DNA of 34,485 bases, taken from the IMG/VR virus record IMGVR_UViG_2531839587_000015. One strand, 5' to 3'. The notes under the pieces were generated by a model. The model ran no database searches. It was not told the origin of the DNA and saw only the letters and a program-made list of their open reading frames with translations. Shown piece after piece: positions 1-34,485 of the stretch (positions within the stretch are counted from its first letter, which is position 1; each line of letters starts with the position of its first letter). This stretch comes from a virus. Taxonomy: Duplodnaviria > Heunggongvirae > Uroviricota > Caudoviricetes. The position numbers and the translations under genes were made by a program.

Positions 1-54
1 TTAAAATCCCTCGGCGTTCGCGCTGTGCGGGTTCAAGTCCCGCTCCGGGTACCA
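1..54 (+). tRNA. leuZ: 3' portion of tRNA-Leu(UAA), truncated by window start (anticodon loop, long variable arm, T-arm, CCA end)
   Basis: Sequence ttaaaatccctcggcgttcgcgctgtgcgggttcaagtcccgctccgggtacca matches the recalled 3' end of E. coli tRNA-Leu(UAA): T-arm GCGGG/CCCGC, GGTTCAAGTCC T-loop, terminal ACCA. Confidence 0.8.
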
Positions 55-206
55 TGGGAAAGATAAGAATAAAATCAAAGCAATAAGCAGTGTCGTGAAA
101 CCACCTTCGGGGGGGTTTTTTGTATTTGTATTTTGTGCAATGGCGGTGGAGTGGCGATGGTGTGGCGATATGCAGAAACAATAGTAGTGCACGTGCTGTT
201 TAAACT

Positions 207-254
207 CTAAGGATGAAGCCGAATTCTCCTGCAGCTCCTCCGTATTTCGCATAG
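207..254 (-). pseudogene. Hok-family toxin remnant: only the C-terminal ...LCEIR... codons remain; about 130 nt including the start codon are missing relative to the copy at 1067-1207
   Basis: Minus-strand translation gives LCEIRRSCRRIRLHP*. Flanking DNA aligns with the 3' end of the intact hok at 1100-1140, and the adjacent leader (255-365) aligns with 1255-1380. Confidence 0.5.
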
Positions 255-365
255 TGAACTAGGACCTCGGTTAAACAAAAATTTTTCTGGGATTTTTCCA
301 CTCGACTTCATTTTTCCTCCTGCCATCCACCAAAAGGTACCTGCGCTAATCTGTCTTTTTTAATC
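255..365 (-). repeat. hok/sok-like leader region, copy A (homologous to 1255-1380)
   Basis: Shared blocks cctcggttaaaca, tttccac, cctcc..ccatc..cc.aaagg.acc..cgc.taatct...tttttt with the region upstream of the intact hok ORF. Confidence 0.55.
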
Positions 366-593
366 TGACAACATCCTGAGAAAAGGCAAAATCGTCAGAT
401 TTACTGTTTTTCTGCTGCCTCGAATGCCGATGTCTGCAGCACTGATAAGAGCTCTATCTCTTTGATATAGATCTTTTTTTTGATGAATTGCACGGCATAT
501 TATCGTTATGACACCTTCTTGTTAAAGGTGTTGTACTCCACATCTCGATTTTATGATGTGGGTTATGATTGGTTAGTAATAGAGTGTATCGGT

Positions 594-875
594 ATGCGAT
601 GTGGTTTATTAATGGCAATCTGTTTTTGTTTGGTATCTTTTAGTGGGTATGCAGCAACAGGAAAGTCTGATGCTCAGATCAAGAAAGAAATAATTAAAGA
701 ATCCATTGAATCGTATCCAGGCAATTGTGCGTGTCCTTATAATCATGCAAGGAATGGTAGTAGATGTGGTAGACGCAGTGCATATAGCCGTACTGGAGGG
801 TATGACGTGGTATGTTATGAGAGTGATGTTACGGATGAAATGATCCGGCAATGGAAGCAGGAGAATGCTGAGTAA
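594..875 (+). CDS. Small secreted Cys-rich protein (signal peptide MRCGLLMAICFCLVSFSGYAA; motif CACPYNHARNGSRCGRRSAY resembling YHYH-type proteins); AT-rich gene
   Basis: ORF 480-875 in the track. An internal Met at 594 begins a typical signal peptide; the 38 residues before it look non-native. Low-GC coding sequence. Confidence 0.55.
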   Translation: MRCGLLMAICFCLVSFSGYAATGKSDAQIKKEIIKESIESYPGNCACPYNHARNGSRCGRRSAYSRTGGYDVVCYESDVTDEMIRQWKQENAE

Positions 876-952
876 TCACTTTTAACTGGTTTGTTTTGCG
901 AGCATTATGTGTGTTGTTAACGGTACCCTAGCTAAGTGAGAGCTCCAAAAGA

Positions 953-985
953 AAACCCGCAGTTTTTACGCTGCGGGTTTTCTTG
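953..985. terminator. Bidirectional rho-independent terminator (cccgcag / ctgcggg stem flanked by A-run and T-run)
   Basis: Hairpin aaaacccgcag-tttttacg-ctgcgggttttc lies between the convergent + strand gene ending at 875 and the - strand hok ending at 1067. Confidence 0.65.
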
Positions 986-1066
986 TTTGTGTCCATGGGA
1001 TAGGGTGCCACTTCGGCCAGCCTTAGCAACCGATTGACGGGGGATTGCTCCCCCGTCGCGGTTTCC

Positions 1067-1207
1067 TTACTGCTTACACTGTAAGAACGCCGCAAACTCC
1101 GCTCCCCAGAAGCTCATCCGTATTTCACACAGCGAACCGTGCAGCATCCAGATGATGAGGATTACCGTCACGCAGAACGTGATGGCCATAAGCGATTTTT
1201 GCGACAT
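1067..1207 (-). CDS. Hok/Gef-family type I toxin, 46 aa (MSQKSLMAITFCVTVILIIWMLHGSLCEIRMSFWGAEFAAFLQCKQ)
   Basis: Own translation; absent from the ORF track because it is under 60 aa. Single TM helix plus the conserved SLCE(I/L)R and AAFLxCK motifs of HokA-like toxins. AAGGAG Shine-Dalgarno 10 nt upstream. Confidence 0.75.
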   Translation of the reverse strand: MSQKSLMAITFCVTVILIIWMLHGSLCEIRMSFWGAEFAAFLQCKQ

Positions 1208-1254
1208 AGCGCTTGCTCCTTTTTTGGGGAGGCGCTAACCTATCACTTGCTAAG

Positions 1255-1385
1255 GTTAGATGGTCAGGGCCTCGGTTAAACAGAAATGTTTTCCGGGGCC
1301 TTTCCACATCTGGCCTTCGGGTATTCCCTCCAGCCATCAGCCGAAAGGCACCCGCGCGTAATCTATCGCTTTTTTGTTACTCCGG
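1255..1385 (-). repeat. hok/sok-like leader region, copy B (mok/sok/translational-activation region upstream of intact hok)
   Basis: Homologous to 255-365. The SD region is embedded in a GC-rich pairing context typical of hok mRNAs. Confidence 0.5.
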
Positions 1386-1397
1386 CAATTCAGCCTG

Positions 1398-1658
1398 TTA
1401 ATTCTGAGGTAAGGGCAAACTCATTTGGTTGTTTCCCCTGTGCGAAGCTGGCAGCTCATTCCACGGGATGCCCTCTGAAGAGTGAACGCCTGGGGCGTGT
1501 TTCGATGTGAATTTATGGAAAGCCTCCAGTGTTGAGAAGCATACGCCGCATTCCAGGTTGTTACACTGGTAATATTTTTTCCGCACGGTATCTGAATCAT
1601 TTTCCGAACGACTGGTGCGGATACGGGCAGATGCGCCACAAAGCGGACAACGAAACAT
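1398..1658 (-). CDS. ogr: Ogr-like zinc-finger late-gene transcription activator
   Basis: MFRCPLCGASARIRTSR...YYQCNNLECGVCF shows the CxxC...CxxxxC pattern and N-terminal similarity to P2 Ogr. GGGAGG SD 5 nt upstream of the ATG. Confidence 0.85.
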   Translation of the reverse strand: MFRCPLCGASARIRTSRSENDSDTVRKKYYQCNNLECGVCFSTLEAFHKFTSKHAPGVHSSEGIPWNELPASHRGNNQMSLPLPQN

Positions 1659-1761
1659 AGCGACCTCCCTTAACGTAGTACTGTCGCTAGTTTAGGCTGA
1701 ACTTACTCAGACTCCAACTGATAGTTCGCTTTGTTTACTGATGCCGTAGAAAGGTCTCTTA

Positions 1762-32345: not shown

Positions 32346-32687
32346 TTATAAATCAGCCTGTTTAATAAAACTTTGCCCACGAAGCAGACGATCAACCGTG
32401 CGAAGTGCTTCGTATAATGTGAAATCCTGTCCGAACTGATTGTCGCCGCTGCTTAGTGCAAAAATGCGGTTTCCGGTAAACGGATTGCGTGGGCATTTGT
32501 GGACTACGATTCCAGCTTTCTCAATCAGCCAGGCATGCTCGCCGATTTGTTTTGCTGGGTAGCCATCCGGTGTTGCGTGTGTATCACTCAGGCTGTAGCG
32601 GATGTTGCTGCGTGATGCACTGGTAGCGAAACGGTTGGCGTGGCGTTCAGCACCATTACGAAAGCGTGAATTACGTTGCTGTTTCAT
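32346..32687 (-). CDS. Hypothetical early protein (113 aa), first gene after cox
   Basis: ORF in the position of P2 orf78/B. Confidence 0.45.
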   Translation of the reverse strand: MKQQRNSRFRNGAERHANRFATSASRSNIRYSLSDTHATPDGYPAKQIGEHAWLIEKAGIVVHKCPRNPFTGNRIFALSSGDNQFGQDFTLYEALRTVDRLLRGQSFIKQADL

Positions 32688-32705
32688 ATCAAAACTCCCT
32701 GCATC

Positions 32706-33032
32706 TCATGCAGCAAAATTAAGAAAGCCTAATCCCAAATCTTCCGCCAGCTTCTTGGCTTTATTAAGCCAGTGATTGCGCCAATCTTTACGCTCAGGAG
32801 GAAGTTGTTTCGTTGCGTCATAGACCATTTCGAGCCACTCGTTCCATAGGATGAGAAGGCGGCGTGAACTTCCTTCCTCGCCTAAAACTTCACGCTCAGT
32901 GGCCAGAGGGATGAGCCGACGTTCCACCAACTTTCTTACGGCTGATTCGGTCTTGCCCGTGCGGCGGGCAAATTCATCGACGGGGATGGGGTCTGGGATC
33001 TTAAACAATGCCCTCAATAGTTCTTCATTCAT
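32706..33032 (-). CDS. cox: Cox-like excisionase / early transcriptional regulator
   Basis: ..IPVDEFARRTGKTESAVRKLVERRLIPLA...W..W.. resembles P2 Cox. Divergent from C. Confidence 0.75.
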   Translation of the reverse strand: MNEELLRALFKIPDPIPVDEFARRTGKTESAVRKLVERRLIPLATEREVLGEEGSSRRLLILWNEWLEMVYDATKQLPPERKDWRNHWLNKAKKLAEDLGLGFLNFAA

Positions 33033-33126
33033 GTGATAATCTCCCTGTTTGGGGTATAGGTGAGATATTTACCCCATAGTTCAACTCATTGTTTGCATAA
33101 TGCACTACATATTTGGAGAATGCAAT
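33033..33126. promoter_or_regulatory. Divergent early promoter/operator region between cox (Pe) and C (Pc)
   Basis: Position between divergent cox and C as in the P2 immunity switch. Short inverted repeat ggggta...tacccc. No promoter elements assigned with confidence. Confidence 0.45.
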
Positions 33127-33429
33127 ATGATTTTGGAGATTGGTGAAAAACTAAAACTAATGCGTGAAAGTGAGCGCATTACAAGTCGCAATGAGGCTGC
33201 GGAGTTAATAGGTATTCCGCATAACGCGCTATGGCGTTATGAGACTGGCGAATCCATACCCAAAGGGGATGTAATGATGAAAATCTTAAATTGCCCGCGG
33301 TTCGAAAAATATGCCTTGTGGTTTATGACTGGAAAAATTGCGCCTGAATCCGGGCAGGTAGCTCCGGCTCTCGCACACTATGGGCAAGAGCCAACGGACT
33401 TACCCCCATCCGAAAGGAAAATTGGTTAA
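33127..33429 (+). CDS. C: C immunity repressor
   Basis: ..KLKLMRESE....L..L.G.P...L..YE.G.S.P..DVMMKIL..P.F.KY.LWFMTGKIAPESGQVAPALAHYGQ closely matches the recalled P2 C repressor. Confidence 0.85.
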   Translation: MILEIGEKLKLMRESERITSRNEAAELIGIPHNALWRYETGESIPKGDVMMKILNCPRFEKYALWFMTGKIAPESGQVAPALAHYGQEPTDLPPSERKIG

Positions 33430-33495
33430 CCCTTTATTATTCTTACGTTTTACAAACTGGGAATGTCTTTCCTCGTTTCACCGGAGGGCTTGCCA

Positions 33496-34485
33496 ATGGC
33501 AATTAAGGCACTCGATGGTGGACGGTATAAAGTGGATGTTAGACCGCGTGGCCGAAGTGGACGTCGGATTCAGCGGATTTTTAAGAAAAAGGCAGATGCA
33601 GTGGCCTTTGAGCGCTATGTTCTCAGCCACATGCACGATAAGGAATGGCTTGAAAAGCCAACAGAGCAACGTCATCTCTCAGATCTGCTTCCATTATGGT
33701 GGGAATTGGGTGGACGCAATAAGCCATATGCTAACGGCGTTCTAACCAGATTGAAAAAAATCATCAAAGAAATGAATGATCCAAGGGTTAGCCAGATTAA
33801 TGCTCGTTTCATGGCAGCTTATCGAAGCTCCCGTTTATCCTTAGGAGTAAAAGAATCTACTGTTCGGCGTGATGAGTCGGATCTCGGAGGAATGTTTACA
33901 CTCCTGGCAAATGCCGGGGAATTTCACGGAGAAAATCCACTCCGCGCCCTCCCCTCTTTGAAACGAAAATCACCCGAAATGACGTACCTCACCACGGAAG
34001 AAATCGCCAAATTGCTGGATGCAGTAAGCGGTGATGCCCGGCGGATTACGCTACTTTGTCTCAGTACTGGGGCGAGATGGGGAGAAGCGAAAAATCTGCG
34101 CGCGGAACACATCATCAATAATCGCGTGACGTTTAACAAAACTAAAAACGGAAAAGTTCGAATTATTCCTGTCTCTGATGAGGTTGTTAGTGAGATCAAA
34201 ACAAAGAAATCCGGCCTTTTGTTTGACGTCAATTATGAGGAATATCGCAAGGTGCTTCGCAGTGTTAAGCCAGACCTACCAAAGGGACAGGCTGTACATG
34301 TTCTACGCCATACCTTTGCAGCTCACTTTATGATTAATGGAGGAAATATACTTACGCTCCAGCGAATTATGGGGCACGCCACGATTCAGCAAACTATGAC
34401 CTATGCGCACCTCGCTCCTGATTTCCTCCAGGATGCAATTTCACTTAATCCGTTAAAAGGAGGCATCCACATTTCATCCACATAA
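33496..34485 (+). CDS. int: P2-type tyrosine integrase
   Basis: MAIKALDGGRYKVDVRP... N-terminus like P2 Int. C-terminal catalytic region contains the R...HxxR...Y tyrosine recombinase pattern (..VLRHTFA.H..). Track ORF begins at 33463. Confidence 0.9.
   Translation: MAIKALDGGRYKVDVRPRGRSGRRIQRIFKKKADAVAFERYVLSHMHDKEWLEKPTEQRHLSDLLPLWWELGGRNKPYANGVLTRLKKIIKEMNDPRVSQINARFMAAYRSSRLSLGVKESTVRRDESDLGGMFTLLANAGEFHGENPLRALPSLKRKSPEMTYLTTEEIAKLLDAVSGDARRITLLCLSTGARWGEAKNLRAEHIINNRVTFNKTKNGKVRIIPVSDEVVSEIKTKKSGLLFDVNYEEYRKVLRSVKPDLPKGQAVHVLRHTFAAHFMINGGNILTLQRIMGHATIQQTMTYAHLAPDFLQDAISLNPLKGGIHISST

Follow-up and report, generated by a model that had tools for sequence, protein, structure and literature searches.

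The window, which is the whole analysed stretch of 34,485 nucleotides, opens inside a tRNA gene of Escherichia coli and carries, within its first 1,658 nucleotides, an intact hok locus, the remains of a second one and the phage gene ogr. The features are as follows.

1-54, plus strand: 3' part of leuZ (tRNA-Leu, anticodon UAA), beginning at the anticodon loop and identical to leuZ of K-12
55-122, plus strand: 3'ETS-leuZ and the operon terminator; the 3'ETS-leuZ sRNA is annotated here in K-12
123-186: attachment-site arm with GTGGCGAT at 151 and 162, a motif also present in the int-side arm of strain 510016
187-372, minus strand: hok' relic, collinear with the intact locus (E 1.7e-12)
594-875, plus strand: ORF of a secreted-looking, Cys-rich protein of 93 aa, a phage accessory gene (phrog_27544, E 2e-58)
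946-985, both strands: bidirectional intrinsic terminator, symmetrical, the shared end of the 93-aa ORF and the hok mRNA
1003-1018, minus strand: fbi-like 3' element, GGCCGAAGUGGCACCC, predicted to pair with the mRNA 5' end in a closing helix
1067-1207, minus strand: hok CDS, 46 aa (Pfam PF01848, 30.3 bits; phrog_251, 82.5 bits)
1209-1234, minus strand: predicted hairpin sequestering the hok Shine-Dalgarno (SD) sequence, GCGCCUCCCC...GGAGCAAGCGC, with the SD GGAG at 1220-1217
1213-1306, plus strand: predicted sok gene, with -35 TTGCTC (1213-1218), -10 TAACCT (1236-1241) and a start near 1248
1347-1388, minus strand: hok promoter (TTGCCG 1388-1383, 17-nt spacer, TAGATT 1365-1360) and mRNA 5' end, kept in nine homologues
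1398-1658, minus strand: ogr, P2-like late-gene activator (Pfam Ogr_Delta, 53.4 bits; also annotated in RefSeq)

The minus strand ORF at 1067-1207 had been proposed, in a sequence-only reading of this DNA, to encode a Hok/Gef-like toxin. Pfam (HOK_GEF, cut-off 22 bits), PHROG and RefSeq, in which the ORF of a 99.8%-identical genome is annotated as a Hok/Gef family protein, all agree on this family assignment, and the database search that could have refuted that reading turned out in its favour. All seven residues that more than 80% of Hok peptides are reported to share, namely M1, a Cys and a Thr in the helix, L-C-E and a Glu (preprint 10.1101/2025.08.07.668861), are present in the putative toxin (M1, C12, T14, L26-C27-E28 and E37 in MSQKSLMAITFCVTVILIIWMLHGSLCEIRMSFWGAEFAAFLQCKQ). 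The best NCBIfam match is HokA (NF007290, E 9.9e-09), however, at 35.1 bits it falls far under the HokA equivalog cut-off of 89, and an identity with hokA of K-12 was therefore rejected. Among nine divergent homologues the length is constant at 46 aa and the median dN/dS is 0.30; judged by these substitutions, the ORF is under purifying selection.

Similarity between the nine homologues starts exactly at the hok -35 box, 9 nt beyond the ogr stop codon (1398-1400), so that the leader of the intact copy and ogr do meet at the point given in the sequence-only reading. The predicted transcript is roughly 410 nt long; its 5' end (GGGUGCC from 1353) resembles the tac element, and the Rfam model RF01794 starts at the same position. 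A closing helix between the 5' and 3' ends, of the tac-fbi type, is part of the minimum-energy fold of all nine homologues, and in the consensus structure 97-98% pairing is reached in closing helices 1 and 2, where one pair shows compensatory change. Likewise, CUCC pairs with the SD GGAG in the minimum-energy folds of 9/9 homologues, this hairpin corresponding to helices 9 and 10 of the consensus (100% and 86% paired). Over the whole consensus structure 94.5% of the cells are paired, against 35-43% with slid partners, and compensatory change affects 19 pairs against 11.4 in shuffles, a number that none of 500 shuffles reached. The modelled folds are in line with the GC-rich, SD-sequestering leader of the sequence-only reading, and the bidirectional terminator that it had described is real.

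We infer a sok gene on the opposite strand of the leader from several sequence features. Its predicted hairpin (1261-1306, followed by a short U run; fold energy -24.5 kcal/mol, z -3.7) has a SokC-like shape and aligns with the annotated hairpin of K-12 sokC at the matching position, while the sok model RF01794 matches 1219-1353 with an E value of 3.6e-08 and 45 bits, under its gathering score of 59. The candidate promoter matches 6/12 consensus positions and is conserved in the nine homologues; a promoter scan of the locus did not detect it. [quoted passage not shown] An alternative -10, TATCAC (1241-1246), to which the start site of sokC had drawn attention, is not conserved and was discarded.

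The "usual" mok frame is not part of the 46-aa subfamily, as comparison of the ORFs of the homologues revealed. In five of the nine, no ORF initiated by ATG, GTG or TTG crosses the hok start in any frame, and the 70-aa ORF that the window holds at 1125-1337 is not conserved among them and was rejected as mok. An in-frame stop lies 30 nt 5' of the hok ATG, and hok has a strong SD of its own. By these ORF comparisons the subfamily is without a conserved mok frame, unlike the plasmid R1 paradigm. Since a conserved mok is absent and hok has its own strong SD, Sok probably works via cleavage or structure of the mRNA and not via translational coupling; any blocking route proposed for Sok here is an extrapolation, because mok is essential in the R1 mechanism. 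The site with which Sok would pair lies about 30 nt 5' of the hok SD. Mok-independent routes may include decay triggered by RNase III or a block at a site for ribosome standby or refolding. It is conceivable, though we hold it only tentatively, that a second regulatory design exists in the hok/sok family, in which Sok controls a directly translated hok independently of mok. Sok control of hok in this mok-less subfamily is the only point of the present work that merits experiment.

The second copy lies about 1 kb from the intact locus, in the same orientation. It consists of a promoter remnant (TTGTCA 371-366, a spacer of 12 nt instead of 17, CAGATT 353-348), a leader (346-261) and the 3' part of the hok CDS (260-187) with a 4-nt frameshift deletion, and has no 3' UTR. 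Blastn aligned 261-361 with 1266-1375 (75.5% over 110 nt, E 1.7e-12) and 225-259 with 1103-1137 (80%, E 0.003). A gapped alignment revealed that 127 nt, corresponding to 1265-1139 of the intact copy, are deleted at the relic junction 260/261; the deletion was placed by local alignment allowing long gaps, together with blastn, as global MAFFT misplaces it. The sok promoter, SD, start codon and membrane helix were lost with it, in good agreement with the sequence-only reading, which had described a leader and hok 3' end missing about 130 nt, start codon and TM region included. The start, helix, promoter spacing, sok promoter and 3' fold-back of a functional hok locus are all lacking in 187-372, no Rfam or Pfam entry matched it, and its equivalent of the Sok hairpin fails to fold (z +0.22). 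The relic was considered as an orphan sok and as a decoy for Sok, and both roles were rejected on account of the deleted sok promoter and 5' tail and the unfolded hairpin.

The deleted form recurs in variants down to 86.5% identity, and the relic is found in 622 E. coli genomes, always adjoining leuZ. Within the window the two copies are 70-80% identical, hence as divergent as different members of the subfamily, and an unrelated phage ORF lies in between; the description of the copies as tandem should therefore not be taken to mean a recent local duplication. The 187-372 segment is a dead second copy, which accompanies the attachment-site arm in P2-like elements that integrate in leuZ, and should be annotated as a pseudogene.

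As the window begins inside leuZ, at the anticodon loop, ARAGORN predicted no tRNA in it; a complete tRNA is annotated at the matching place in strain 510016. The tRNA-Leu that was said to adjoin the hok loci is thus present, but the window covers no more than its 3'-terminal 54 nt. The 3' half of leuZ together with 3'ETS-leuZ (window 1 to about 122) constitutes the core of the attachment site. In the near-identical lysogen 510016 these 122 nt occur at either end of the prophage as a direct repeat; the repeats bracket everything from 124 onward, thus lying outside both hok copies, and the yecA-proximal copy continues into native K-12 sequence. K-12 represents the empty site, with nothing, and no hok, in its leuZ-yecA interval. 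The two marks of integration into a tRNA gene, a repeat of the tRNA 3' end at either prophage end and an empty site, are accordingly found in 510016 and K-12, respectively, while the window itself shows the leuZ-side copy only. In the adjoining arm, GTGGCGAT is a putative Int binding site, and window 1-186 is 91% common to a differently organised leuZ prophage of strain KY204. The integrase of the window is of the type that adjoins pheA in 125 genomes and not of the leuZ type, so that excision of this prophage as a single unit is only putative. Strain EC130 is 99.7% identical over window 1-1700, yet holds only a short remnant at leuZ. A P2-like (Xuanwuvirus-type) prophage, or at least its left end, sits integrated in leuZ.

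In the sequence-only reading, the prophage boundary lay within or next to a hok locus, which would make hok a chromosomal locus beside leuZ, at or into which a P2-like prophage had inserted, with its end at about 1385-1400. The hok promoter is indeed only 9 nt from the ogr stop, and no other gene separates ogr from the attachment site in phage P2. This reading, however, meets with four observations against it, and we give it practically no credence. Ogr, hok and the terminator form one block in six phage genomes (P88, Chuche, P884B11, 500465-2, PhiR44_2 and Shae_phiSM), the phage homology extending to window position 947 or 996 and that of P88 starting at 947; the K-12 leuZ-yecA interval is devoid of hok; the leuZ repeats of 510016 lie outside both copies; and the ogr-hok pair occurs at many chromosomal sites. 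The proposed boundary at about 1385-1400 is refuted by the phage blocks, the 510016 repeats and the K-12 interval, and according to the same evidence, taken from sequence comparisons, the junction falls in leuZ (window 1 to about 122) and the integrated element includes both hok copies. K-12, with its empty site, served for the comparison with a prophage-free strain which had been recommended for locating the attachment site. With a prophage limit inside leuZ, the tRNA and the 3'ETS-leuZ sponge RNA are restored upon integration.

The intact hok is phage cargo, as Xuanwuvirus phages (P88 and its relatives) share the ogr-hok module. This module, annotated in RefSeq, is present in 1755 of 5426 complete E. 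coli genomes, hence hok is carried as phage cargo in about a third of them. The cassette, beginning exactly at the -35 box, also occurs in lambdoid prophages, where it separates J/lom from the tail-fibre genes, and adjoins ykgM in O157, and prophages have been described in the literature as enriched in hok.

The segment between the attachment-site core and the intact cassette (124-946), which comprises the relic and the 93-aa ORF, could have another history. The 93-aa ORF, lying between the two hok copies, is a hypothetical protein in RefSeq and matched no Pfam or NCBIfam family; P88 gp53, considered as a relative, proved to be unrelated. It is possible, but in our judgement rather unlikely, that 124-946 is not packaged and is the leftover end of an older leuZ element, beside or onto which recombination placed the present prophage. 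No particle-derived phage genome with 124-946 was found in the phage records, and three gapped patterns of the attP junction gave no match in IMG/VR and metagenomes, although two of the three could not have matched, as the int end of the window is not of the leuZ type. Four IMG/VR contigs with the arm sequence are proviruses cut at one place and are uninformative on the junction. Strains MS 124-1 and CRE78 have the relic adjoining leuZ and followed by IS elements and defence genes instead of a P2-like prophage; the KY204 leuZ prophage has the same core and arm without 124-946; and the right end of the window carries another integrase type. A weak match to the 3' end of ogr, located upstream of the relic, would fit the same history; it is marginal against other ogr genes (30 nt, 80-83%, E 0.008-0.1), and the match to the window's own ogr was rejected, as 155 of 1000 shuffles scored as high. 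Against such a leftover, no third copy of the attachment site separates the segment from the intact hok, the 93-aa ORF falls in a PHROG family, and the arm (123-186) beside the relic is common to another leuZ phage. Furthermore, about 4800 genomes do not have the segment, and among its 622 carriers its sequence diverges down to 86-92%; this divergence, far exceeding that of the E. coli core genome, together with the absence, indicates a mobile origin.

We consider it very probable that 946-1388 on the minus strand is a self-contained type I hok/sok cassette of about 445 bp, carried between ogr and the attachment site as cargo of a P2-like prophage that is integrated in leuZ at least by its left end, with 187-372 as a dead copy. 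The intact cassette might instead be silent or decaying, with no present function, as is the case for K-12 hok loci hit by IS insertion or mutation. In K-12 the majority of the chromosomal hok loci are inactivated (IS150 and IS186 adjoin hokA and hokC), and the neighbouring copy in the window is dead; however, the intact 46-aa ORF in nine divergent homologues with a dN/dS of about 0.3, the compensatory changes in the mRNA helices and the conservation of both promoters and the terminator make this improbable.

Apart from the structure of the mRNA, the steps by which a functional cassette would act are modelled on the R1 and hokW paradigms. A constitutive promoter would generate hok mRNA, about 410 nt long and stable, which, with its 5' end paired near the 3' end and the SD buried in a hairpin, would not be translated at full length. 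Slow trimming of the 3' end would remove the fold-back and allow refolding. Sok, predicted to be an unstable RNA of about 55-60 nt (plus strand, 1248-1306), would pair with nt 50-106 of the leader once the mRNA is activated and provoke cleavage by RNase III, so that Hok synthesis would be prevented for as long as the prophage remains and is transcribed. If the element were lost, an infecting phage shut off the host or the prophage were induced, sok transcription would stop, Sok would decay first, and the translated 46-aa membrane peptide would depolarise the inner membrane. The phage may benefit by prophage retention, by exclusion of other phages and/or by faster lysis upon induction. The intact cassette is of an ordinary hok/sok type, already known and annotated. 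The significance of the locus beyond its correct annotation is small.

Comparison of the cassette to hok/sok (parB) of plasmid R1 reveals the same layout of a small Hok membrane peptide, a stable long mRNA with tac-fbi pairing of its ends, a sequestered SD, and a short antisense RNA, predicted here, that is encoded in the leader and has a single-stranded 5' tail and a terminator hairpin. It differs from R1 in the absence of a conserved mok, in being carried by a prophage instead of a plasmid, in the Rfam sok score under the gathering threshold, and in the length of Hok, which is 52 aa in R1 (PMC8621323) and 46 aa here. In K-12 hokC/sokC, hokC is extended in frame by mokC, but in the present cassette the frame is closed shortly before the hok ATG; the hairpins of sokC and of the predicted Sok are, as described above, alignable. 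The best functional analogy is hokW-sokW of the Stx2 prophage Sp5, a toxic, Sok-repressed and RNase III-dependent type I toxin-antitoxin system that helps phage release (PMC8621323) and is also borne by a prophage, however, HokW has 51 aa, its phage is lambdoid, and the 46-aa subfamily forms a different cluster. The label "MokW-like host killing" found in RefSeq phage records is just the name of the PHROG family. P88 and the other Xuanwuviruses differ from the present prophage in the genes past the terminator, the lack of a relic copy and their attachment modules, but P88 gp52 and its Xuanwuvirus equivalents are the same gene at the same place, the ogr-hok-terminator block being 92-94% identical at the nucleotide level.

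The 46-codon ORF at 1067-1207 (-) encodes MSQKSLMAITFCVTVILIIWMLHGSLCEIRMSFWGAEFAAFLQCKQ. The sequence-only reading had assigned this product to the Hok family, correctly, as it matches Pfam HOK_GEF (30.3 bits, cut-off 22) and phrog_251 (82.5 bits) and carries the RefSeq label Hok/Gef family protein; its closest named relative is HokA, with a score (35.1 bits) far under the equivalog cut-off of 89. Eight homologues with 75-92% nucleotide identity were gathered from three contexts: P2-like prophages, where the locus adjoins ogr; lambdoid prophages, where it lies between the tail-fibre genes and J or lom; and O157:H7, where it adjoins ykgM. The similarity starts exactly at the -35 hexamer and stops at the terminator, therefore the unit is a cassette of about 445 bp (1388 to 946), and given its presence in P2-like, lambdoid and ykgM contexts it behaves as a mobile module that crosses unrelated phage types. 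The start exactly at the -35 holds both for the cassette adjoining ykgM in O157:H7 strain 8368 and for those of the lambdoid prophages. The ORF is 46 codons long in all nine loci (the intact locus and its homologues), with a median dN/dS of 0.30.

Predicted promoters and RNA start of the intact hok locus
1388-1383 and 1365-1360 (-), hok promoter, TTGCCG and TAGATT with a 17-nt spacer
1353 (-), start of the hok RNA, GGGUGCC, where the Rfam RF01794 model also starts
1213-1218 and 1236-1241 (+), best candidate sok promoter, TTGCTC and TAACCT with a 17-nt spacer

The RNA was folded from +1 to the conserved GGCACCC in the nine homologues. In all nine folds the first ~15 nt pair with GGCCGAAGUGGCACCC (1018-1003), a predicted closing helix that is the hok fold-back in these models, and the SD GGAG is paired with CUCC in a hairpin. 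Paired cells make up 94.5% of the consensus structure, compared to 35-43% after sliding the partners by one to three columns; both-side changes occur at 19 consensus pairs versus 11.4 in shuffles, a number reached in none of 500 shuffles.

On the strand opposite to hok, the hairpin region can be aligned with the annotated sokC of K-12, and the predicted fold of 1248-1306 (+) (-24.5 kcal/mol, z -3.7) has the shape of SokC, with an unpaired 5' tail followed by one long hairpin. The -10 of the candidate sok promoter is TAACCT in eight loci and TAATCT in the ninth; the promoter matches 6 of 12 consensus positions and was not listed by the promoter scan. The predicted Sok is thus put forward as well supported by homology. 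The Rfam sok match (RF01794, 45 bits, E 3.6e-08, under the gathering score of 59) lies at 1219-1353 (-), on the hok-sense strand, because the model covers the hok leader. The 157 positions of RF01794 span the mRNA from +1 to just before the hok start codon, hence the model in effect describes the hok leader and not the 55-65-nt antisense RNA, and the strand of its matches should not be taken as the sok strand.

The second copy with an internal deletion, also noticed from the sequence alone, is indeed present at 187-372 (-). Its stretches 261-361 and 225-259 are collinear with 1266-1375 (75.5% identity, E 1.7e-12) and 1103-1137 (80%, E 0.003) of the intact copy, and gapped alignment places a 127-nt deletion (intact 1265-1139) at the junction 260/261. 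Lost with it are both hexamers of the candidate sok promoter (-35 and -10) and the 5' tail of Sok, as well as the SD, start codon (ATG) and membrane helix of hok. The relic promoter has a 12-nt spacer, versus 17 nt in the intact copy, and CAGATT as -10. A 4-nt deletion shifting the frame after SLCEIR produces a 39-aa fusion ORF (207-326) in the relic. The leftover Sok-hairpin sequence does not fold (z +0.22), the entire 3' UTR, including the fold-back element and the terminator, is missing, and homology stops at 187, flush against the attachment-site arm. The relic is a pseudogene. Its deleted form occurs in 622 genomes, in every case beside leuZ, with variants down to 86.5% identity. At 70-80% identity, the relic and the intact copy resemble each other no more than different members of the subfamily do, therefore they do not derive from a recent local duplication.

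Features of the two ends and of the insert
1-54, remainder of the leuZ tRNA
55 to about 122, 3'ETS-leuZ sRNA and operon terminator
594-875 (+), 93-aa ORF, phrog_27544 (E 2e-58), PHROG function unknown
32663-34485, C/cox/int module, with int at 33463-34485

The window is E. coli chromosome, and its first base falls within leuZ, the gene of a tRNA-Leu with anticodon UAA, precisely at the anticodon loop; ARAGORN found no tRNA in the window because leuZ is cut by its edge. The gene order upstream in strain 510016 (99.8% identical) is uvrY-uvrC-pgsA-glyW-cysT-leuZ. From about 124 onward the DNA is a P2-like prophage, read from the ogr end towards the integrase, whose stop codon ends at the last base. 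In 510016, a 122-nt direct repeat, which begins at the anticodon loop of leuZ and ends with the 3'ETS terminator, flanks a 37.6-kb P2-like prophage on both sides, its yecA-side copy running on into native sequence. A prophage boundary had been proposed at 1385-1400. This is wrong, since both hok copies fall within the 510016 repeats, and ogr, hok and terminator form a single block in phages P88, Chuche, P884B11, 500465-2, PhiR44_2 and Shae_phiSM, with homology extending to 947 or 996; 1385-1400 is a mere junction of ogr and the hok promoter. In K-12, where the site is empty, 3'ETS-leuZ is the sole feature between leuZ and yecA.

In leuZ lysogens, the attachment-site core takes in the entire 3'ETS-leuZ sponge RNA together with the 3' part of leuZ. 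The terminator stem of the latter (98-122) reads ccaccttcgggggggtttttt in the window versus ccaccttcgggtggttttttt in K-12 and 510016, a variant that results in one stem mispair. GTGGCGAT is present twice in the core-adjacent arm (151-158 and 162-169), and once more in the int-side arm of 510016, ~104 nt from the core beside the variant GTGACAAT; these repeats are candidate arm-type integrase binding sites.

A leuZ prophage of strain KY204 has 1-186 in common with the window (91%), followed by 100 nt of its own and the terminator-hok-ogr block, which makes 187-946 a variable insert that separates the arm from the intact cassette. It consists of the relic and the 93-aa ORF, which has a signal-peptide-like N-terminus, a Cys-rich motif (CACPY...RCGRRSAY) and its own promoter-like site (365-392), shares a bidirectional terminator with hok, and matched no Pfam or NCBIfam family. 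No particle-derived genome or excision junction with the insert was found; junctions were sought in IMG/VR and metagenomes with three gapped patterns, two of which used the non-leuZ-type int end of the window and so could not have detected one. Beyond the relic, strains MS 124-1 and CRE78 have no phage but IS elements and defence-type genes, which in MS 124-1 encode a type I restriction enzyme and a protein with a TIR domain, and in CRE78 DUF1524 and a PD-(D/E)XK nuclease. It appears that leuZ also serves as the site of a defence island. That the insert is a fossil of an older element, recombined in, rather than packaged phage DNA, we regard as less likely.

The 510016 prophage matches 1-32663 with 85-99% identity, except for unmatched gaps at ~9.5-12.1 kb and 29.0-30.9 kb, and the C/cox/int module has no homology to it. 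The integrase adjoins pheL/pheA in 125 genomes. Together these make the prophage look like a hybrid of a leuZ-type left end and a pheA-site-type right end; the window carries the left flank alone, the right flank lying beyond it. It may have arisen by recombination of two resident P2-like prophages; if so, the chromosomal segment that separates the two would be inverted.

The hok cassette is an ordinary phage accessory cassette, already annotated, with a dead companion copy: of 5426 complete E. coli genomes, 1755 contain the ogr-hok block in annotated form, and a preprint (10.1101/2025.08.07.668861) reports that hok is enriched in prophages. A 70-aa ORF (1125-1337) fits mok in length; it was rejected for lack of conservation. 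In five of the nine homologues no ORF initiated by ATG, GTG or TTG spans the hok start, whatever the frame, and all nine carry an in-frame stop 30 nt before the hok ATG. An AAGGAG belonging to hok itself is found at a distance of 8 nt from this ATG. The recent Hok survey expressly did not attempt mok prediction, and the absence of mok is the sole lead worth experimental work. The prophage-borne hokW-sokW works experimentally, is RNase III-dependent and aids phage release (PMC8621323); HokW, with 51 aa, belongs to another cluster than the Hok described here. Compared to the paradigm hok/sok of plasmid R1, the lack of mok is the only departure of this locus.
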